Sequence record: MK327929.1 | Length of the DNA stretch: 64,000 bases | Source of the DNA: Escherichia phage D5505 | Direction: 5' to 3' (one strand) | Shown: piece after piece, positions 2,189 through 54,888 of the stretch | Numbering within the stretch: position 1 is the first letter of the stretch | How the letters are laid out: the number at the start of each line of letters is the position of its first letter | The notes under the pieces: model-generated | The model's input: the letters and a program-made list of their open reading frames with translations, nothing else | What the model was told of the DNA's origin: nothing | Database searches by the model: none | Made by a program: the position numbers and the translations under genes

Positions 2189-2392
2189 TTAATTCATATT
2201 ACGTTTAATAACTTCAGCAACTTCTAGCAGTTCATCTTTAGTTGCGGTGTCGGATTGAATTTTATCTCTAATATCTTTAAAGCGGTTTTTAAATTCTTCG
2301 GCTTCTCCCATATCGAAAAAGCGTTGAATGATTCTATATTCTCGATGAACTGCTTTATCAAAAAGTTCTAAATTTACTTTATATGATTTCAT
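2189..2392 (-). CDS. hypothetical protein at T4 rIIA.1 position
   Basis: 67-aa ORF between 39 and rIIA; promoter and GAGGA SD immediately upstream. Confidence 0.6.
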
Positions 2393-2417
2393 TTCAATAT
2401 CCTCATTTGCCCAATTA

Positions 2418-2447
2418 ATTATACCACATCCTTGTGGTAAAGTAAAC
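2418..2447 (-). promoter_or_regulatory. T4-early-type sigma70 promoter (-35 GTTTAC, 18-nt spacer, -10 TATAAT)
   Basis: minus strand reads GTTTAC..18 nt..TATAAT; overlaps gene 39 stop; 32-bp identical copy at 47025-47056. Confidence 0.55.
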
Positions 2448-4267
2448 TACTGGCTCATCCATTCTTTACGAAGGTCAGCATTATCTCCCATGAGCATTTC
2501 AAAAAGCTCTTTCCAGTTCTCAGGAAGTTTAACAACATCATATACTGGGTTTTGAATCATCTCACGATATTCAGATTTTTCCAAAGAGCCAAGTCCTTTA
2601 ATATAACGGATGCTATGTTTAGGTAGAGCATCTTTGGCACTCTCATATTCAGCGACTGTATAAAACCATTCTTGTTTTTTACCAATCTGAGCGATGATTA
2701 CAGGAGTTTTGACAAAACGAATTCGTCCTTGCTCAAACAATTCTGGCCAATTACTAAAAAATCCAAGCAGAGAAGGATAAATGCTTCCTAGACCATCATG
2801 GTCAGCATCAGTCATAATAGCAATATTATGATAATTCAAGTTTTCAGCTTTTTCACCGAGAACTAATCCAGTGATTGCGCAAATATCAAACAGTTCTTTG
2901 TTTTTAAGCATGTCAGCATATGACATACCCCAACTGTTGAGAACTTTACCACGTAATGGATAACCACCGTGAAGTTCTTTATCACGAACATCAATAAGAT
3001 ATCCGATAGCCGAATCACCCTCAGTCAAGAAAAGAGTAGTATCAGCATCTTTACCACAAAGATTCGCTTTAATATGTTTATGAACCTTAGCTTTAGAAGC
3101 CTTTTTAGCTGCTTTAGTTTCTGCTGCTTTTTCTGCCGCTAATTTACGAGCCAAAGCAGCTTCAATAATCGGCATTAGAATTGCTTCATTATTTAGAATA
3201 GCACGTGAAATCTTTTTAGCATCAAGTTGAATATGACTACGGATTTCACCAAATGGAGAAGTCAAACGCTCTTTAGTTTGAGAATCAAATCGCATGTTTT
3301 TCATATCACGGACAAACATAACGATAGTCAAACATTCTTTAACGCGTGCTTTAGTCACATCAATTTTGAACTTACGTTTGATTTGTGGAATAAGGTCTTC
3401 ACAAATATCATCCATAACACAGTCAATGTGATGGCCACCATTCTTAGTGTGAATGTTATTCACATAAGTTAATTGACGAAAACCATCCGGTGAACGACCA
3501 ACCGCAATAGAGCAATTTTCTTGTTCTTGAACGATAGCATGCTCATCATATTGGCGTGCATATTTCTTAAAATTGCCCTGAACCTTTTTACCATTAAAGG
3601 TAAATTGAATATCAGGATAAACTACTGCAAGTGTCTGGAGACGATCTAGTGTAATGTCAAGATAAACTTGGGACAGCTCATTAGTTTCAAATGACATAAA
3701 ATCAGGAATGAAAGTAACGCGAGTTCCTTTCCATTTTCCTGGAATAGTTTCCCATGATTTATTTTCCATGCCATTTGAACAACGAACTACAATATTATTT
3801 TGACCATCACCAGTTTCACCGACAAACATCACAGAAAAAATGTTTGTCAAACTAGAACCAACACCATTCATACCACCGGTGACGCGTTCTTTATCATCAC
3901 CGAAGTTACCACCTGCTTTTGGAATAGTCCAGGCAGCAACAGGACCAGGAATTTCTTCACCAGTAGGTGTTTTGACCATCGCTTGTGGAATACCGCGACC
4001 GTTATCTTCAACTGTTACTTGATTGTTTTTAATAGTAACATTAATTTTATTTGCGAATTTAAACTTAGTACGAATACCTTCATCTACTGAGTTATCGATA
4101 ATTTCATCAATAAGCTTAACAAGACCAGGTACATACTGAACACTTTCCCATTTACCAAACAGAAAGCGCTCATGCATTTCATTAGCAGAAGAGCCAATAT
4201 ACATGCCGCTACGCTTTTTGATATGTTCAATATCGCTCAGAATTTTAATTTCATTCTTAATCATCAC
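2447..4267 (-). CDS. 39: DNA topoisomerase II large subunit, continuous gp39 (T4 gp39 plus gp60 equivalent in one ORF)
   Basis: 606-aa uninterrupted ORF, sequence recognisable as T-even gp39; T4 splits this into 39 and 60. Confidence 0.9.
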   Translation of the reverse strand: MMIKNEIKILSDIEHIKKRSGMYIGSSANEMHERFLFGKWESVQYVPGLVKLIDEIIDNSVDEGIRTKFKFANKINVTIKNNQVTVEDNGRGIPQAMVKTPTGEEIPGPVAAWTIPKAGGNFGDDKERVTGGMNGVGSSLTNIFSVMFVGETGDGQNNIVVRCSNGMENKSWETIPGKWKGTRVTFIPDFMSFETNELSQVYLDITLDRLQTLAVVYPDIQFTFNGKKVQGNFKKYARQYDEHAIVQEQENCSIAVGRSPDGFRQLTYVNNIHTKNGGHHIDCVMDDICEDLIPQIKRKFKIDVTKARVKECLTIVMFVRDMKNMRFDSQTKERLTSPFGEIRSHIQLDAKKISRAILNNEAILMPIIEAALARKLAAEKAAETKAAKKASKAKVHKHIKANLCGKDADTTLFLTEGDSAIGYLIDVRDKELHGGYPLRGKVLNSWGMSYADMLKNKELFDICAITGLVLGEKAENLNYHNIAIMTDADHDGLGSIYPSLLGFFSNWPELFEQGRIRFVKTPVIIAQIGKKQEWFYTVAEYESAKDALPKHSIRYIKGLGSLEKSEYREMIQNPVYDVVKLPENWKELFEMLMGDNADLRKEWMSQ

Positions 4268-4318
4268 TTATCCTCGTTTGGTTTCGGGAATATTATACTC
4301 CGGTAATCATAAAGCTAA

Positions 4319-4332
4319 AGGCCCGAAGGCCT
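4319..4332 (-). terminator. GC hairpin with CGAA/UUCG tetraloop (aggcc-cgaa-ggcct), terminator-like
   Basis: perfect palindrome just downstream of the 4334..4603 stop; T-rich on plus side, moderately T-rich on minus side. Confidence 0.4.
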
Positions 4333-4333
4333 T

Positions 4334-4603
4334 TTATTTAAAACGAATAGTCGAATCCTTGAAGAATAGTCCAGAACATACTGTTCCTTCTACTTTCTGC
4401 CCAGTAGGTCCAATAGCACGAAATCCAGTATGCTGGAAATCATTTTCAGAGCAACCGAACCAATTATATCCAGTGATTTCAATATTAGTAAAACCACTTG
4501 AAGACAAAACTTTGGTTGCATTATCAGCATCAGTACATCCTATTAAAGACACTGCTAATACTAATGCTGCGATAGAACGATTAATATATTTCATAATTTT
4601 CAC
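4334..4603 (-). CDS. putative lipoprotein (signal peptide with LIGC lipobox)
   Basis: 89-aa ORF, N-terminal hydrophobic segment ending in Cys (AVSLIGC). Confidence 0.6.
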   Translation of the reverse strand: MKIMKYINRSIAALVLAVSLIGCTDADNATKVLSSSGFTNIEITGYNWFGCSENDFQHTGFRAIGPTGQKVEGTVCSGLFFKDSTIRFK

Positions 4604-4971
4604 TTAAATTTAATGGCTTGAAGAAGACTAATAATTCTCAAGCGACTTCCTTCATCTTTAACTGTAAAAGAAAGAGGGTCACCAGATTTCATAGTGATAG
4701 TGCATTCAAAAGCAAAACCTTCGGGAACTTCTTCGAAGAAGTCAAATTCTTCATCATAAATTAGAACATTACTCTGAAAACTGTGAAGAATTTTTCCGTC
4801 ATTTCCAGATGCTGTACTAATCATTGTAACATTATTACCTTTCATATCTTCAACGATAAATTCGCTTGTAGATATTACAGCATTAATAGAACCATTCCTA
4901 TAAATAGCAGAAAATAGATATTTCTTTTCTTCACCTTCGCGAATGCGATATTTCTTACCGATTTTAAACAT
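4600..4971 (-). CDS. hypothetical protein
   Basis: 123-aa ORF tiling the 39-goF interval; 4-nt overlap with downstream gene. Confidence 0.55.
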   Translation of the reverse strand: MFKIGKKYRIREGEEKKYLFSAIYRNGSINAVISTSEFIVEDMKGNNVTMISTASGNDGKILHSFQSNVLIYDEEFDFFEEVPEGFAFECTITMKSGDPLSFTVKDEGSRLRIISLLQAIKFK

Positions 4972-4973
4972 AA

Positions 4974-5150
4974 TTACCCTTTAAGTAAGTCGTAAAATCC
5001 GCCATTCACATGCTTAGGGGCAGAGACTAACCGAATAGCAATCCGATGACAATCAGGACATACATCAGTATCTCTTTCAGAAATTTTCTTGATTTTTTCG
5101 TATTCTTTTGCGCAGTCTTTTGATTGACATTTATAATCATAAAGCGGCAT
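4974..5150 (-). CDS. small zinc-ribbon protein (FmdB-like CxxC...CPxC), about 58 aa, absent from ORF track
   Basis: hand translation MPLYDYKCQSKDCAKEYEKIKKISERDTDVCPDCHRIAIRLVSAPKHVNGGFYDLLKG; AAGGA SD 6 nt upstream; fills an otherwise empty gap; coordinates approximate. Confidence 0.45.
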   Translation of the reverse strand: MPLYDYKCQSKDCAKEYEKIKKISERDTDVCPDCHRIAIRLVSAPKHVNGGFYDLLKG

Positions 5151-5152
5151 AA

Positions 5153-5566
5153 TTATTCCTTAAAGTGAGCTTTCAACATCTGATACAAGGACCATGCCTG
5201 TTCATCATTTTCAATAGTAACTTTCATTACAGGGAATTTAGATTGATCAGTTATCGGTGCAGATTCTTCCTGCTCTTCAGCTGCCTGGTATGGATTTTCA
5301 ACTTCATTAAAGAATTCAGCTTCATTCGATGAAAGCCAAATAAAATCTTCATCCAAAATATCTTTACCAGAAGATAGTACTAAATTTCCAGCAAATGACA
5401 TAATTTTAATAGGACGCCCAAGAGCATCCACATCTAAAATTTTAAAAGGATGCATACCTAAACGGCGTGCATAGATTCCGTTATCAGTATGGTCTTTAAT
5501 AAAATTTTCTTGAGCTTGTTTATTTTTAAATTGATACCATTTATTAACTTCAAATTTAATAGCCAT
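5153..5566 (-). CDS. hypothetical protein at T4 goF position
   Basis: 137-aa ORF; position matches goF by synteny (T4 goF about 141 aa); identity not confirmed. Confidence 0.5.
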
Positions 5567-5781
5567 TAATAAATTTCCTTCCAGTAAGTTGTACCATCTT
5601 CAGTGATTTCACGAAATACACCGTAAATTGGTTGTTTATCCCCAACCTTTTCATACACATAAACCGAAGTCAAGTGAGTAAACTTAGCAGTGTGTTCCTT
5701 TTGAACTACTACCAAATCTGGATCGAATAACACATCTTCAAATTCGTCATTAGTGCAGTTCTGAACAATTTTACGTTTCAT
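5566..5781 (-). CDS. hypothetical protein at T4 cef position
   Basis: 71-aa ORF, same length as T4 Cef, syntenic; identity not confirmed. Confidence 0.5.
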
Positions 5782-5880
5782 TACAATTTCCTCGTTAATT
5801 GAACATTGGAGCGGTGCGTTTCAGAAGAGTAGCAGCACCTTTGGCAAATTTTCCATTTTATTCTCCAAATTATTTTCTAT

Positions 5881-5923
5881 ATCAGTAGTTGATATTGATA
5901 TAGTACCATAATCAACTACTGAT
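5881..5923. repeat. perfect 13-bp inverted repeat (atcagtagttgat / atcaactactgat) with 17-nt loop
   Basis: read directly; loop carries the GGTACTATA promoter-core motif seen at 24781, 49997, 51919, 55506; lies between motB and the cef-position ORF. Confidence 0.7.
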
Positions 5924-5953
5924 GTATATAGTTTTATGAAAAAATTTTAAACT

Positions 5954-6445
5954 TTATGCATAGCGAGCTTTGCTGTAGTGTTTAATCCAACTTTCAGGAA
6001 TGACTTTGTATGTTCCTAAAAATACCGCGTTGTATAACTTAACGCCATCTTCTACCCATTGATCAGTAATGTATGCACACATAGCGCGAGTACGCCGAGG
6101 AAGTGGTTGTCCACCTTCGATAAATTCAAACTCATAAGGAGCAATGAACTTAATAGCTTGACCGAGTTTCCACTTAAAGTCTACACCTACATGCGAAGTA
6201 TCAATCGTTTCAATTCCTTTAGCGGGAACAGCTTTCAAAAACGCAGATTCAAGAAATTTCGCGCGAACATAACCAAACTGAGGTTTAGACTTTCCATCTT
6301 TAGGAATGATACGCACTTTTACTTCAGAATCTTCATCTTTAACGCCATGTTTAAGCTGAATGCTTACAATTTCGACCAATTTTCCTGCTGCTTTAGAACG
6401 GGATTTATCAGATACACGAGCAATTTCACCAATATTAATAATCAT
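5954..6445 (-). CDS. motB: MotB-like DNA-binding protein
   Basis: 163-aa ORF at T4 motB position (T4 MotB about 162 aa); assignment by synteny and length. Confidence 0.55.
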   Translation of the reverse strand: MIINIGEIARVSDKSRSKAAGKLVEIVSIQLKHGVKDEDSEVKVRIIPKDGKSKPQFGYVRAKFLESAFLKAVPAKGIETIDTSHVGVDFKWKLGQAIKFIAPYEFEFIEGGQPLPRRTRAMCAYITDQWVEDGVKLYNAVFLGTYKVIPESWIKHYSKARYA

Positions 6446-6521
6446 AGTTATCTCTCACTTGTTAAAAAGATTTTATACTCCACAGGACCATTATACTCTG
6501 GTCCCAAGAGTTTGTAAACTA

Positions 6522-7067
6522 TTAATTCAAAATAGCTACCACCGCACTACGAGGTACTACACTAAAATCTCCTGCATGGACAACGTTCAGAAGCTCAACA
6601 CCATCTTCAATCCACTGGTCTGTTACCCAACCACAGATAGGATTATCAAAAGGACGACGGATAGACACAGCAGCACACAATAGGTCTGTAGGGTCTTGTT
6701 CTTCAACTTCTTGGAACAGGATGAACTCATCTTCATAAACCAGGTTTTTCTTTATTTTGTTATTATCTAACCGGCGACCGTGGATGACGTAAGATTTGTC
6801 AAACCACTCACTTTTGGCAAATTCTTCAACAATAAATTCGCCTTCGCCAAAAACATCAGTCAGAGTTTTATGACCAGAAATCAAGGCATTAGTTTTAATT
6901 TTAGGTTCAACCAGTTTGTAGGTTTTGCCGATTTCAATAGCGGTAGTCATAGTAGGTTCCTTAATTTCCAGTGGTTTAACAGGGCATACATAAGTGCTTA
7001 CAACATCAAAATCAATCAGTTTAGCTACCGGATTTGGTATGTATTCAGGATTATAATTAAATTTCAT
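6522..7067 (-). CDS. MotB paralog (shares C-terminal module with 5954..6445)
   Basis: 181-aa ORF; C-terminal WVTDQWIEDGVELLNVV aligns with YITDQWVEDGVKLYNAV of the neighbour. Confidence 0.55.
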   Translation of the reverse strand: MKFNYNPEYIPNPVAKLIDFDVVSTYVCPVKPLEIKEPTMTTAIEIGKTYKLVEPKIKTNALISGHKTLTDVFGEGEFIVEEFAKSEWFDKSYVIHGRRLDNNKIKKNLVYEDEFILFQEVEEQDPTDLLCAAVSIRRPFDNPICGWVTDQWIEDGVELLNVVHAGDFSVVPRSAVVAILN

Positions 7068-50433: not shown

Positions 50434-51420
50434 TTATTTCAGAAGAGTAACCTCAGCGATTTCTTGCCAACCGTTTTTGTCGGTCATAATAAAGTCAGCA
50501 AGATAAAGTGCAGTACGCAGTGAAACATTGCGTAAACGGTTAACATTGACTTTCATCCATGATAATGCTTTATAAGTTTCTTCATCAGAAAGACCGCGCT
50601 TTTGCATCATGTCAGTTGAAAGAATAACATCTTCAACCCTGACCATAATTTCTTCATTAGTGTGAACACCCAAATCCAAATAAACCGAGCGGGACACTAA
50701 TGCTTGTAAATGTGGAGCAAGTTTAGTACCACGGTCTAATTCGCGGTCAATGTCAACGTTTGTGATAAAAACAATCGTTCCTTTAAATTCAAACTCACGC
50801 TCAATGCCTTTTTCTTCTAAGTAAGAAGATGCGGTGCTCCAGCAGACTTTACGGGTCTCTCCAGTGTCCAGAGCAGCTTTCAGAAGATTAAGAATGTCCA
50901 TATCAGAGAAAACATCCACATCATCAATCAAAAGGACAGAATTCTCTTCACGATTATTCCAAAGTTGTTCATAAAGACCGATACCGGAGATTTTACCGTT
51001 AATGCTTTTATATTCAATGTATCCATTATCATTTGCTTTATTCAAAGCTTTATCTAAAGAATACGTTTTACCAATACCCGCCGCACCAGAGATAATTAAT
51101 GAACGAATGTTTCCGTTAATAATACCATTCGTCATCATTCCCATAACATTAAATCTTTTATTAATGCGGGTTTTCATATCTTCATATGATTCTTTAACTT
51201 CTTCAACTTTTACACCATCATATGAAATGTCTGATTTGTAAACCCAAACACCGCGACGCTTACCGTCAATTTCAACAAAAACTTTACCATCTCCTTGTGC
51301 ATCTACCGGAGCATTATCTGGGAACCATTCACCTAAGAGCTCAAAAGTTCCAGAGATTTCTTTACCGAAGTAGATACCCTTATTGATAGTTACAGTTTTC
51401 ATTTTATTCTCCAATCTCAC
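50434..51420 (-). CDS. P-loop ATPase (AAA+-like) of unknown function
   Basis: 328-aa ORF; Walker A GAAGIGKT, Walker B LLIDDVD. Confidence 0.6.
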   Translation of the reverse strand: MRLENKMKTVTINKGIYFGKEISGTFELLGEWFPDNAPVDAQGDGKVFVEIDGKRRGVWVYKSDISYDGVKVEEVKESYEDMKTRINKRFNVMGMMTNGIINGNIRSLIISGAAGIGKTYSLDKALNKANDNGYIEYKSINGKISGIGLYEQLWNNREENSVLLIDDVDVFSDMDILNLLKAALDTGETRKVCWSTASSYLEEKGIEREFEFKGTIVFITNVDIDRELDRGTKLAPHLQALVSRSVYLDLGVHTNEEIMVRVEDVILSTDMMQKRGLSDEETYKALSWMKVNVNRLRNVSLRTALYLADFIMTDKNGWQEIAEVTLLK

Positions 51421-51471: not shown

Positions 51472-51735
51472 TTATTTTAACGTTCGCCAAATTTTTACTG
51501 CTTCACGGCGAGATACTTCTACAGCTCCAAGTTCTACAGCTTTTTGGCGTCGGCGAGCGTGTAAGTCATAATGTTTAATGCGTTTATCTTGAAACCAAGA
51601 ACGTTTCATTCCTATTGCTTCTGCCATTTCATGAAGCTCTTCAATATCTCCATCAGTGAACATATGACAATTTTTAGTTGGATGACCGCGAAGTTTCCAT
51701 CCATGATTCATTAAAACATCTACGTAAACTGTCAT
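51472..51735 (-). CDS. hypothetical protein
   Basis: 87-aa ORF. Confidence 0.45.
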   Translation of the reverse strand: MTVYVDVLMNHGWKLRGHPTKNCHMFTDGDIEELHEMAEAIGMKRSWFQDKRIKHYDLHARRRQKAVELGAVEVSRREAVKIWRTLK

Positions 51736-51881
51736 TGATTCTTCTCCAAATAAGTTTCGATAATTTTCTGAGCGAGATAAACTGCATTATCTTCAGTTGC
51801 ATCTTCTAAGAAACTTTCAAAACACTCTGAAATTTCTTCTGTGTCAATCAACTTTTTTACTTCAATTGGTGTAATTTTCAT
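51732..51881 (-). CDS. hypothetical small protein (start reassigned to ATG 51879-51881, about 49 aa)
   Basis: ORF-track start 51950 lies inside promoter 51919-51948. Confidence 0.35.
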   Translation of the reverse strand: MKITPIEVKKLIDTEEISECFESFLEDATEDNAVYLAQKIIETYLEKNQ

Positions 51882-51918
51882 TTTGTTTTTCCGTTTAAGT
51901 GTTTGTTTTGATAGTTGT

Positions 51919-51948
51919 ATAGTACCATAAAGCTTTATGCTTGTAAAC
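51919..51948 (-). promoter_or_regulatory. T4-early-type promoter (GTTTAC..18..TACTAT)
   Basis: minus-strand motif just downstream of terminator 51973-51996. Confidence 0.5.
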
Positions 51949-51972
51949 AATTTTGTGAAAAATTTTTGAAAT

Positions 51973-51996
51973 AAAAAAGGGAGCCCGAAGGCTCCC
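51973..51996 (-). terminator. rho-independent terminator after the 337-aa nucleotidyltransferase gene
   Basis: gggagcc-uucg-ggctccc hairpin followed by TTTTTT on minus strand. Confidence 0.7.
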
Positions 51997-51998
51997 TA

Positions 51999-53012
51999 TC
52001 ATTTATAATAACTTCGGTGGTTTTCAAGATAAACCCTCTCAAGGAAGTCATCCCAAAAACCCATGTCTACTTTTTGCTGCATACCGTTCTTAGAAGCTTC
52101 AGTAGATGCTGCTTCTACTTGATCGACCACATCTTCCAAAAACTCTTGAACCGTTTTAAATGGATGTTTACCCAACTTCACGTCGAGAATAAATGGAGCA
52201 TCTTGGAGTGGATAAACCAAGTCACCAGTTTTGTAAATTTCCAATAGTTGGAGTCCACCACGGCAAGCATGACTCAGAGCTTTCCAGTCAATACCTTCAT
52301 TGGCTTCGGCCTTACGAGCACGTTCACCGTATTCAGCATCTAATTTGTTCAGTGACTGCTTAAGCTCAATAAGAGAAAGCGTTGTCTGATATTTACGACC
52401 CAACACTGTGTAGAACGTCTGTGGGCCTGTTTTCTCATGATTATGGAACACCCATTCACAGAATTCGTTTTCTGGAAGACGATGCTTAATATCTTCAACT
52501 TTAGTACGACGCTGCTTAATAGAACCATCTTCTTGGTAATCAACCCACTGCTCAGGGATTTGATTAACTACTTTCAATACATCACGTAATGCAGCCAAAC
52601 GAGAACCCTTAACGCCGTATTTAGAAGCTTGCTTACGGACATATCCTAAATAGGATTTCATGTTAGTCGTATAAAAACGAGAACGGTTGTCTTGAATAAA
52701 CTTCCACACATCAGGCAAATCAGATTTAACCACTAGTTCAGGTGGAGTGTGAAGCATATCTAACGCTACAGTTTCACCATCTGCTGCTAATTTAAAGAAA
52801 TATTTAAGACTGTATAGTTCATGGTCAATATCATCTTTAGTGTTTTTAGATGATGTGTTGTTAGTGTTTTTACTCATGTGCTCTTTAACATTTCCGATAA
52901 GAATATCACGAGCAGGAGGAACAAAGATTTCTTTAAAATCTACATCAGATTCTGGGGTAGAAGTTCCATAAAGATGACTACCAAAATAGCTTTTCATTAC
53001 TGTTTTCATCAT
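51999..53012 (-). CDS. nucleotidyltransferase-fold protein (Pol-beta superfamily), function unknown
   Basis: 337-aa ORF; N-terminal GSHLYGTSTPESDVDF fits the minimal nucleotidyltransferase signature GS-x9-13-DxD. Confidence 0.6.
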   Translation of the reverse strand: MMKTVMKSYFGSHLYGTSTPESDVDFKEIFVPPARDILIGNVKEHMSKNTNNTSSKNTKDDIDHELYSLKYFFKLAADGETVALDMLHTPPELVVKSDLPDVWKFIQDNRSRFYTTNMKSYLGYVRKQASKYGVKGSRLAALRDVLKVVNQIPEQWVDYQEDGSIKQRRTKVEDIKHRLPENEFCEWVFHNHEKTGPQTFYTVLGRKYQTTLSLIELKQSLNKLDAEYGERARKAEANEGIDWKALSHACRGGLQLLEIYKTGDLVYPLQDAPFILDVKLGKHPFKTVQEFLEDVVDQVEAASTEASKNGMQQKVDMGFWDDFLERVYLENHRSYYK

Positions 53013-53470
53013 TCAGCCTTATATTCAATAACAGGACATACTTTAGCTTTACGAGCTTTTAAAAATTCAACGATAATCGATTTCTTGGGTTGAATAGGAG
53101 GTAAACCTTTATACGCCCTATCAATATTTTCTACGTGTAAAGCATAATCCTTTTTCCATTTATAATCTTTATATTTTTCACGCAGTTGTGCAGGAATAAC
53201 AAATGAACCGATAATAAGTAAAACAAGCAAAATGGCAAGTATAAATGCCGATGGAAGAAGAGTCCATAAACTACCAAAAATAAGCCATTTCTGTATGATT
53301 TCTGCACAGATAATAGTTAGACCTGCGAGTATAGTACATCCGAAAAAAGAAACGAAAAATGTAGGGATAACAATAGACCAAAAGTATGCACACAGTGTCT
53401 TAGGTCGTTTCCATTCGTCGTTAAACAGTTTGAATAATTTATAGTGCCAAGAGTTTTCATTAATAATCAT
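53009..53470 (-). CDS. integral membrane protein (about 3 TM segments)
   Basis: 153-aa ORF; 4-nt overlap with the nucleotidyltransferase gene. Confidence 0.5.
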   Translation of the reverse strand: MIINENSWHYKLFKLFNDEWKRPKTLCAYFWSIVIPTFFVSFFGCTILAGLTIICAEIIQKWLIFGSLWTLLPSAFILAILLVLLIIGSFVIPAQLREKYKDYKWKKDYALHVENIDRAYKGLPPIQPKKSIIVEFLKARKAKVCPVIEYKAE

Positions 53471-53472
53471 AA

Positions 53473-53994
53473 TTATCCTTTCATTGAAGGTGTAACAGTT
53501 GTTAAATACTTAATCATAGCTTCAGCTTCTGATTTTGATAATGAAATTTCTTCATTGTTTTGACGAATAGAAATAAAATCCGGATGACGGTCACCACCAG
53601 CTTTTAAAACACACATATAAGTATCAGTTTCATCTTCAATATCTGAAATGATTGAAGCAGTTCCACATGAATGTGGTTTTTGATAAATCAATACAGCTTT
53701 TCTTCCACCGTTTGACTGTTCATAAACTTTTAACACATCAAACAAATCGCTTCTTTTATCAATAGCTAAGATGTTGTTTTCATCTTCAATATTAAATCCT
53801 TCGGATACTTCATAAAGTGTCACCCATAAATCACCAATATCAATAACAGCGTTCACTTTTCCATGACTTTCAAGAGCATTACAAATTTTCTTAATTTCAT
53901 CATAACTCATTTTAATAATATCATCTCCTTGAATAAGGAAGATGTCATTTTTAAATTCAATACGAATTAAACCACTTCCACTTGAAATAAACAT
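53473..53994 (-). CDS. hypothetical protein (paralog of 54001..54558)
   Basis: 173-aa ORF; C-terminal KSEAEAMIKYLTTVTPSM resembles TKDEAIALKTYLDSVIPTM. Confidence 0.5.
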   Translation of the reverse strand: MFISSGSGLIRIEFKNDIFLIQGDDIIKMSYDEIKKICNALESHGKVNAVIDIGDLWVTLYEVSEGFNIEDENNILAIDKRSDLFDVLKVYEQSNGGRKAVLIYQKPHSCGTASIISDIEDETDTYMCVLKAGGDRHPDFISIRQNNEEISLSKSEAEAMIKYLTTVTPSMKG

Positions 53995-54000
53995 ATTTCC

Positions 54001-54558
54001 TCACTTTGAAATCATAGTTGGAATGACAGAATCGAGATAAGTCTTTAGCGCAATAGCTTCGTCTTTGGTAAATGTGACAATATGTGATCGAAAATCGTCG
54101 ATTTGGCGAATAGTTAAGACATCTCCCTCTTCATAACATTTTGATACGTTTAAAACAGTTTCATCATTCTGATTGCAAGCGTTAGTAATAATAGCATTGC
54201 AATTTTTGAGCCATTTTAAACTATGTTTTCTTTCATTAGAATAATAAAAATATTTAATCTTATCTATAAAACTATCCCAATGGATAACTGATAAACACAT
54301 TGACTCACTTTTAATATTAAATCCTGGGCATGAAGAATAAAAATGAATTTTGTGCTCATCATTGATGCTTACTATTTTATCAGTATAAGGATATTCAATT
54401 TGGGTTAAATGAATGATTTCACTAGGCGTAAAATATAGCATATCGTCTTCTTGTGTCAAACGATACATATTATTTACTTTTTCTATAGCTAATTCACCAA
54501 AAAGCGGACTAACTTCTAATACTAATCGTTTCATATTGATTCTCTTCGACTCACTCAC
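54001..54558 (-). CDS. hypothetical protein (paralog of 53473..53994)
   Basis: 185-aa ORF. Confidence 0.5.
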   Translation of the reverse strand: MSESKRINMKRLVLEVSPLFGELAIEKVNNMYRLTQEDDMLYFTPSEIIHLTQIEYPYTDKIVSINDEHKIHFYSSCPGFNIKSESMCLSVIHWDSFIDKIKYFYYSNERKHSLKWLKNCNAIITNACNQNDETVLNVSKCYEEGDVLTIRQIDDFRSHIVTFTKDEAIALKTYLDSVIPTMISK

Positions 54559-54693
54559 AATTACATACTCCTTTGAATAATATCAATAATGTTGTTCACC
54601 AGATTATAAGTAAACATTGGGTAATTATATTGAATCATTACATACACAACAAACAAAACTTTCATTCTCTTCTCCTTGACAGTTGACAAGATT

Positions 54694-54723
54694 ACTATAC
54701 CATAACCTTGCCAACTTGTAAAC
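54694..54723 (-). promoter_or_regulatory. T4-early-type promoter (GTTTAC..18..TATAGT)
   Basis: minus-strand motif in the 330-bp intergenic region upstream of 54001..54558. Confidence 0.45.
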
Positions 54724-54888
54724 CGTTAAATGTTGTTTTCAATAAAATTCTGAAGCTTTGTGTGAGCATCAACCATGATTTTCATTTCTTCTTTGGCGAA
54801 AGCTGTACCTCTTTCCCGAGAAGAACACTCATAGTCAGAAACTGCATTAGCATATTCTTCAATTAGTTTCATTAAAAACATCTGCTTT

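Follow-up and report, generated by a model that had tools for sequence, protein, structure and literature searches.

Background

RlaP proteins, named by Burroughs and Aravind (2016; as cited in PMC12776372), constitute the Pfam family PF10127, which carries the description 'RNA repair pathway DNA polymerase beta family'. The present analysis concerns a protein of 337 residues encoded on the minus strand of Escherichia phage D5505 (sequence record MK327929.1; the analysed stretch of 64,000 nucleotides (nt) is referred to as the window), which is virtually certain to be the ortholog of NrdC.11 of phage T4 and a DNA polymerase beta (Pol-beta) type nucleotidyltransferase (NTase) of family PF10127. 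Two bacterial RlaP enzymes, those of P. fluorescens (PfRlaP) and P. aeruginosa (PaRlaP), both encoded between rtcB and rtcA, were assayed in a preprint of December 2025 (PMC12776372). According to this study, they (i) add 1–2 nucleoside monophosphates (or deoxynucleoside monophosphates) to the 3'-OH of RNA, DNA and protein not being substrates, (ii) prefer Mn2+ and nicked-tRNA mimics, (iii) partly restore aminoacylation of tRNA devoid of one anticodon-loop nucleotide, and (iv) label rRNA, tRNA and fragments with all four nucleoside triphosphates (NTPs) at little specificity (PMC12776372). The RlaP crystal structure at 2.1 Å comprises an NTase domain and a helical domain (PMC12776372).

NrdC.11 is already known, being a named T4 gene product for which both a family assignment and a functional prediction have been published. 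Its orthologs were assigned to COG3541 'nucleotidyltransferase' in 2006 (PMC1524935), and phage RlaP proteins were predicted to restore nucleotides lost from RNA ends prior to ligation, e.g., the wobble base excised by RloC, a prediction restated for jumbo phages (PMC7824862). In a similarity network (SSN), T4 NrdC.11 was placed in SSN cluster 5 as an RlaP of unknown function, with the assayed enzymes being located in cluster 1a (PMC12776372). The view of a first-pass annotation of the window, made from the nucleotide sequence alone, that no function can be assigned to the 337-residue protein is thereby superseded.

Results and discussion

Identity with T4 NrdC.11

The 337-residue protein shares 99.1 % identity over its full length with NrdC.11 of phage T4T. 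A megablast search with positions 51900–54750 of the window matched 663 phage records, 428 of which cover at least 80 % of the query; almost all of these well-covering records belong to Tequatrovirus, with Escherichia, Shigella or Yersinia as hosts. D5505 is accordingly a T4-like phage (Tequatrovirus). The T4 gene order in direction of transcription is mobD.2, mobD.1, mobD, nrdC.11 and nrdC.10, in agreement with the mobD location supposed in the first-pass annotation and with nrdC.11/mobD.1 as published insertion site of mobD (PMC2988022). Position, orientation and flanks of nrdC.11 are conserved in D5505, and the terminator as well as the downstream promoter are identical. Differing from T4, D5505 carries a membrane protein gene and a second y05I-like paralog at the place where T4 has mobD, a free-standing HNH homing endonuclease, and two extra small genes between nrdC.11 and nrdC.10.

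The first-pass annotation had named a clear match to a conserved T-even open reading frame (ORF) of housekeeping function as an outcome contradicting its reading. The gene indeed is a conserved T-even ORF, yet not a housekeeping one, since the fragment nrdC.11–mobD.3 is among the large fragments lost from viable mutant genomes in T4 genome reduction (PMC9825161) and hence dispensable.

In many deposited T4-like genomes, 'thioredoxin' is the annotation given to NrdC.11 as well as to most of the other nrdC.x ORFs; in one GenBank record, NrdC.11 appears as 'putative HNH homing endonuclease'. These labels look like annotation errors originating from the nrdC name prefix and the neighbouring mobD.

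Conserved motif, family and fold

The nucleotidyltransferase motif GS...DxD recognized in the first-pass annotation is contained in residues 11–26 of the 337-residue ORF (GSHLYGTSTPESDVDF) and is borne out by an alignment of 137 sequences, comprising the window protein, 16 T4-like proteins and 120 proteins from a marine Vibrio-phage clade (~25–34 % identity). Residues G11, S12, D23 and D25 are nearly invariant among these homologs, down to ~25 % identity; invariant in the same alignment are E65, D85, K135, R138, K207, R231, D242, K244, S247, H248, R251 and K279. The protein thus displays the hG[GS] motif, the DxD on the next strand and the third conserved carboxylate that characterize the Pol-beta superfamily. 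The PF10127 (RlaP) profile is matched with 44.3 bits (cut-off 23; E 2.4e-11), phrog_388 'nucleotidyltransferase' of PHROGs at 8e-137, and most NrdC.11 homologs carry a precomputed PF10127 assignment. The family amounts to 3421 clusters (at 50 % identity) with E ≤1e-3 and 827 with E ≤1e-30.

An AlphaFold model calculated from the 137-sequence alignment (predicted local distance difference test, pLDDT, 85.8; predicted template modelling score, pTM, 0.69) superseded the unusable single-sequence model (pLDDT 41). According to this model, an alpha/beta NTase domain forms the N-terminal part, followed by a beta-rich segment (~158–209) and a helical bundle at the C terminus, with the conserved motif residues being located on strands 3–10, 24–31 and 62–68. 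The top structural match of the model is HalB, and the closest solved structures are those of HalB and kanamycin NTase. In the model, the Pol-beta fold is thus confirmed, in a two-domain form resembling kanamycin NTase and HalB rather than cGAS/DncV; this answers the fold check by AlphaFold proposed in the first-pass annotation. Sequence searches against the PDB yielded nothing for the 337-residue protein alone and solely matches of E ≥0.14 with a profile, and the PfRlaP crystal structure was absent from the matches of all PDB sequence and structure searches. PADLOC and NCBIfam provided no match for any protein of the cassette proposed in the first-pass annotation.

Relation to canonical RlaP

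When ten canonical RlaP sequences were compared with the NrdC.11 alignment at the profile-profile level (hhalign), the NTase core alone could be aligned (85 columns, probability 83 %, E 9e-6). Common to both types are the Pol-beta core with GS...DxD, the succession of an NTase domain and a helical C-terminal domain, and, for distant homologs of NrdC.11, the occurrence next to genes for RNA ligase, RtcB and CCA-adding enzymes. In contrast to canonical RlaP, NrdC.11 is ~60–70 residues longer, contains the beta-rich insert (~158–209) and lacks detectable sequence similarity in its C-terminal two-thirds. A K-x3-(H/Y)-x2-R motif seen by eye in both C-terminal domains was dropped, since it found no support in hhalign (E 0.15). 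By sequence comparison, NrdC.11 represents a divergent sub-clade of PF10127 and not a canonical RlaP. Core-only alignment together with the fusion or pairing of both types in bacteria (see below) argues for a separate sub-family.

Gene neighbourhoods of distant homologs

Gene neighbourhoods were compared in a viral set of 86 loci, including 78 from IMG/VR, and in a bacterial set of 47 loci (L087–L133), the latter with 28–38 % identity apart from two likely phage-derived contigs. Among the viral loci, a heal-and-seal cassette is located directly 5' of the NrdC.11 homolog in six of the 78 IMG/VR loci, belonging to two sub-lineages (L080, L083, L084 and L081, L082, L086; coordinates 2285–6930 in the uncultured phage contig L080). 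It encodes (i) an AAA_33 P-loop kinase, (ii) an HD+AAA_33 kinase, and (iii) a ligase of the T4 Rnl1 type (PF09511, 7.5e-25). Between the two sub-lineages, the NTases are 78 % and the ligases 58 % identical. In addition, an Rnl2-type ligase is encoded 2 kb downstream of the homolog in L078 and an Rnl1-like gene 3.3 kb upstream in L071.

Genes for class II CCA-adding enzymes (PF01743) represent a further recurrent neighbour. In Vibrio phage 11895-B1 (L005), the NrdC.11 homolog follows the gene of a CCA-adding enzyme and a small 'hydrolase'. Metagenomic phage contigs display the homolog directly after the PF01743 enzyme (L007, L008) or 1.2 kb away (L006), and in three phage genomes of ~183–232 kb (L067, L072, L073) the distance is at most 5 kb. 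Two Campylobacterales contigs of the bacterial set (L103, L105) share the order CCA-adding enzyme, NrdC.11-like protein and RtcB (PF01139, 5e-85). The CCA-adding enzyme likewise is a template-independent NTase restoring RNA 3' ends, and in several phages and Campylobacterales its gene directly adjoins that of the NrdC.11 homolog, but it belongs to a different Pol-beta family without Pfam overlap and co-occurs with NrdC.11 rather than replacing it. In Vibrio phage 11895-B1, the gene of the CCA-adding enzyme is annotated as a two-piece join with an HNH endonuclease ORF in between (L005:2275–4456), suggesting that this split tRNA nucleotidyltransferase gene contains an intron or an intein.

In bacteria, the predominant neighbour is canonical RlaP itself: in 27 of the 47 loci, a full-length RlaP (PF10127 positions 1–249, E 1e-68 to 1e-75) is encoded immediately downstream of the NrdC.11-like protein or fused to it (e.g., L091:6001–7814, L099:6004–7760 and L101:5929–7803). 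ORF tracing revealed at least 13 such fusions of 404–857 residues (the shortest on a truncated contig), mostly of ~620–860 residues, in Desulfovibrio, Synergistaceae and Adiutrix, as well as start/stop overlaps of 1–4 nt between the two genes in several Alphaproteobacteria. Both halves of the pairs retain the GS...DxD motif; in one fusion protein, PF10127 was assigned to residues 369–614 (E 1.5e-85) and NTP_transf_2 near the N terminus, i.e., in the NrdC.11-like half. No canonical RlaP was found near NrdC.11 in the 86 viral loci or the window. Judged from these gene arrangements, the NrdC.11 type would act alongside canonical RlaP in bacteria, not as its substitute, and would act alone in phages.

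Since members of the NrdC.11 sub-clade are located in cassettes with kinase, HD-kinase and Rnl1 and beside CCA-adding enzymes and RtcB, the association with RNA repair is not limited to canonical RlaP. The pairing in bacteria suggests that the activity of NrdC.11 could differ from that of canonical RlaP, making it a partner rather than an equivalent. As a rough judgement, it is possible, if somewhat doubtful, that the NrdC.11 type constitutes a distinct partner subunit of canonical RlaP with its own step or specificity in RNA repair.

Proposed function in RNA repair

By analogy with the published RlaP activity, which is the best available model for NrdC.11 but may not apply to it, restoration of RNA 3' ends in tRNA repair as a counter-defence is moderately favoured as the function of NrdC.11. 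The protein would be produced early from a polycistronic message ending at the hairpin terminator. The G11-S12 loop together with the carboxylates D23, D25 and E65 or D85 would bind the NTP and the divalent metal, enabling damaged RNA to be extended at its 3'-OH by one or a few nucleotides in a template-independent manner. The enzyme would probably act on tRNA halves or on 3' ends that anticodon nucleases or ribotoxins of the host have trimmed. A functional tRNA would then be resealed by the T4 polynucleotide kinase-phosphatase (Pnkp) and RNA ligase, whose genes are located elsewhere in the genome, such that NrdC.11 may serve as an accessory counter-defence enzyme. In this scheme, the nature of the RNA substrate, how many nucleotides are added and the role in anti-defence are inferred. 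For T4, healing and sealing by Pnkp, Rnl1 and Rnl2 is established; these enzymes are not encoded in the window, the remainder of the D5505 genome not having been searched for them. The suggestion in the first-pass annotation of an anti-defence candidate agrees with the published RNA-repair prediction for RlaP.

RNA repair as a means of counter-defence was first exemplified by the T4 Pnkp/Rnl1 pathway. Since a nucleotide is removed by host nucleases such as RloC, simply rejoining the ends should be of no use; if the proposed function holds true, an enzyme of the RlaP type would provide T4 with the missing step of restoring the lost nucleotide. This adds no new concept, since the idea was already put forward by Burroughs and Aravind 2016 (as cited in PMC12776372), Iyer et al. 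2021 and Carruthers et al. 2025. Added here are (i) the extension of the repair-gene association to the NrdC.11 sub-clade itself, (ii) the distinction of this sub-clade from the assayed enzymes and its usual fusion or adjacency to canonical RlaP in bacteria, and (iii) the recognition of the upstream genes as interchangeable occupants of a slot also used by mobD.

Several observations weigh against the proposed function. The PF10127 match spans residues 7–135 of NrdC.11 and only positions 23–142 of the 249 profile positions, and the C-terminal halves of NrdC.11 and canonical RlaP show no similarity in hhalign (E 0.15, probability 0.4 %). The published activity rests on PfRlaP and PaRlaP, both outside the NrdC.11 clade, and the pairing or fusion with RlaP in bacteria implies that the two types are not interchangeable, so that PfRlaP activity may not transfer. 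The closest solved structures act in DNA synthesis (HalB) or on antibiotics (kanamycin NTase) and not on RNA. Moreover, no gene for an RNA ligase, kinase or CCA-adding enzyme is present nearby in the window or in T4-like phages generally. The tolerated loss of nrdC.11–mobD.3 in laboratory T4 fits an accessory role and offers no phenotype to build on.

Alternatively, NrdC.11 could be an RNA-tailing enzyme without a repair role, attaching short non-templated tails which mark host or phage RNAs for decay or alter tRNA 3' ends in host takeover. Fold and family would be the same as for a repair enzyme, transcription from an early-type promoter and the absence of repair genes nearby in T4-like phages are compatible, and RlaP uses all four NTPs and labels its various RNA targets with little specificity; yet the repeated neighbours of the distant homologs are ligases, CCA-adding enzymes, RtcB and kinases for end healing instead of RNases or decay factors, rendering RNA tailing unlikely. 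Nucleotidylylation of a protein or small molecule, e.g., to inactivate a host toxin, as known from MNT antitoxins (AMPylation of HEPN toxins) and aminoglycoside/lincosamide NTases, is rather improbable: kanamycin nucleotidyltransferase, ANT(4'), is among the closest solved structures, albeit at 8–10 % identity and with an antibiotic as substrate, and the genomic context of NrdC.11 contains nothing indicating small-molecule modification.

HalB (PDB 9dbh, 9dbj), being the best structural match, directs attention to the Hailong anti-phage system, which likewise consists of a membrane protein and an NTase. HalB makes tyrosine-primed poly-dA. The membrane protein encoded upstream of NrdC.11, with which its pairing is conserved in T-even-like phages, might then form a Hailong-like pair with NrdC.11, in which an oligonucleotide product gates or neutralises the phage's own membrane protein or host HalA, resulting in superinfection exclusion or an anti-Hailong decoy. 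Such a pair is very improbable. The similarity to HalB exists at the fold level only (16 % identity, no sequence-level match), NrdC.11 has 337 residues compared to ~217 in HalB, and PDB searches with the membrane protein alone and with the NTase alignment profile revealed no sequence similarity to HalA or HalB; PADLOC was likewise negative. T4 and L011 keep NrdC.11 at 96–99 % identity without the membrane gene, both genes are separated by others in many phages, and the distant homologs are flanked by RNA-repair genes and lack a membrane partner. A role as partner of RlaP seems more likely for NrdC.11 than membership in a Hailong-like module. The signalling role considered in the first-pass annotation, i.e., synthesis of cyclic or linear signalling nucleotides by a cGAS/DncV-like enzyme, is close to refuted: the generic GS...DxD Pol-beta motif is all that speaks for it, while the sole CD-NTase among the structural matches (8ysd; Foldseek E = 0.12, template modelling score 0.14) is not significant, PADLOC detected nothing and the Pfam family is RlaP instead of a CD-NTase family.

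Organization of the locus and transcription signals

All coding across 50.4–56.5 kb of the window is on the minus strand, including the four ORFs reported in the first-pass annotation (337, 153, 173 and 185 residues). The features of the locus are, in direction of transcription:

54694–54722, minus strand: early-type sigma-70 promoter-like site at the start of the unit (GTTTACA, 17 nt, TATAGT, with an upstream TG; 10 of 12 matches plus TG)
54561–54665, minus strand: MobD.2 ortholog, ORF of 34 residues, translation nearly identical to T4 MobD.2
54001–54558, minus strand: MobD.1 ortholog, y05I-like, 185 residues from GTG, 88 % identity to T4 MobD.1
53473–53994, minus strand: second y05I-like paralog (from Pfam), 173 residues, 27 % identity to the 185-residue ORF, absent from T4
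53009–53470, minus strand: small membrane protein, 153 residues, 2–4 spans predicted from hydropathy, phrog_944 'membrane protein' at 9.4e-50, absent from T4
51999–53012, minus strand: NrdC.11, RlaP-family (PF10127) Pol-beta nucleotidyltransferase, 337 residues from the first ATG, 336 from the second
51978–51997, minus strand: intrinsic terminator hairpin directly after the nrdC.11 stop codon (8-bp stem, UUCG loop, U-run; T4 copy identical)
51919–51947, minus strand: next early-type promoter-like site, starting the downstream unit and marking the boundary outside the cassette (T4 copy identical)

Since the genes are on the minus strand and transcription proceeds from 54.7 kb to 52.0 kb, nrdC.11 is the last gene of the unit, contrary to its initial description as heading a cassette. 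Accordingly, the early polycistronic unit consists of the promoter (54722), mobD.2, mobD.1, the 173-residue y05I paralog, the membrane protein gene, nrdC.11 and the terminator (51978–51997). The stop codon of the 153-residue ORF overlaps the NTase start by 4 nt (first ATG) or 1 nt (second ATG), as is apparent from the junction GAATGATGAAA; the previously claimed overlap of both genes is therewith verified.

The strong terminator noticed at this position in the first-pass annotation is corroborated by six G-C pairs among the 8 bp of the stem and by a folding energy of -17.3 kcal/mol compared to -7.8 ± 2.2 kcal/mol for shuffles (z = -4.3). Promoter-like sites are not enriched in the region (30 found versus 23.9 ± 4.3 expected); therefore, the likewise predicted site at 54694–54722 counts only as a consensus match in the right place. 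Between this site and the 185-residue ORF lies the MobD.2 ortholog, which had been missed. The true start of MobD.1 is likely the ATG at 54534; the resulting length of 177 residues is that annotated in phage Ptacy1496. Within the MobD.1 coding sequence, ~100 nt from its start, is the site that agrees best with the sigma-70 consensus in the region (54432–54459, minus strand; TTGACA, 16 nt, TATATT plus TG; 11 of 12 matches); it may represent an internal promoter for the downstream genes.

Upstream genes and their distribution

The 173- and 185-residue ORFs are diverged paralogs (27 % identity, E 2e-9), as already recognized in the first-pass annotation. Both belong to the T4 y05I-like family (PF24449 and PF24448, cut-offs ~25–27 bits), the two domains scoring above threshold in either ORF: T4_y05I_N with 9.7e-35 (119.6 bits) and T4_y05I_C with 2.4e-23 (82.7 bits) in case of the 173-residue ORF, and with 2.5e-39 (134.3 bits) and 2.2e-21 (76.4 bits), respectively, in case of the 185-residue ORF. 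In the membrane protein, hydropathy indicates two long hydrophobic stretches (residues ~25–60 and 62–98) compatible with 2–4 spans; the three spans initially assumed are plausible and not fixed. Comparison of the y05I protein and the membrane protein with PDB sequences gave chance-level matches only.

The notion of a four-gene cassette did not hold. A tblastn search retrieved NrdC.11 in 1517, the membrane protein in 851 and the 173-residue paralog in 448 phage records. Of the membrane gene, the 173-residue paralog and mobD, T4 contains mobD alone, the paralog having no match in T4T, and L011 lacks all three, with rI being located 1.3 kb upstream. Across the 78 IMG/VR loci, the slot upstream of NrdC.11 is variable and NrdC.11 itself constant; the membrane gene is directly adjacent to nrdC.11 in some phages and separated by other genes in others. 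Since the distributions differ and T4 as well as L011 are devoid of members, the four genes do not form a stable unit, and a co-inherited functional cassette was rejected. Rather, the upstream genes are co-transcribed neighbours and interchangeable occupants of a hyperplastic slot also used by mobD, not required partners. In T4, mobD may have displaced the membrane gene and the 173-residue paralog.

In locus L015 from IMG/VR, a mobD homolog (79 % identity) is located between the membrane gene and nrdC.11, ~760–1220 nt upstream of the latter; this arrangement implies insertion of the endonuclease directly upstream of nrdC.11. Homologs of the membrane protein (22–50 % identity) recur 5' of nrdC.11 in most Straboviridae loci. 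On the other side, nrdC.10 (window 50434–51420, minus strand), encoding an AAA/STAND-like P-loop ATPase, retains its position 3' of nrdC.11 in the majority of Straboviridae loci, those of Acinetobacter phages among them, a linkage more persistent than that of the upstream genes. The recurrence of the membrane protein gene and of nrdC.10 around nrdC.11 is read as retained synteny, with a functional link being conceivable.

The two small genes between nrdC.11 and nrdC.10 (window 51472–51950, minus strand), both absent from T4, encode an ORF of 49–72 residues (phrog_6888) and a DUF4031 protein of 87 residues. In other T4-like phages, this pair is located 2–5 kb further downstream of nrdC.11, behaving as a movable mini-cassette.

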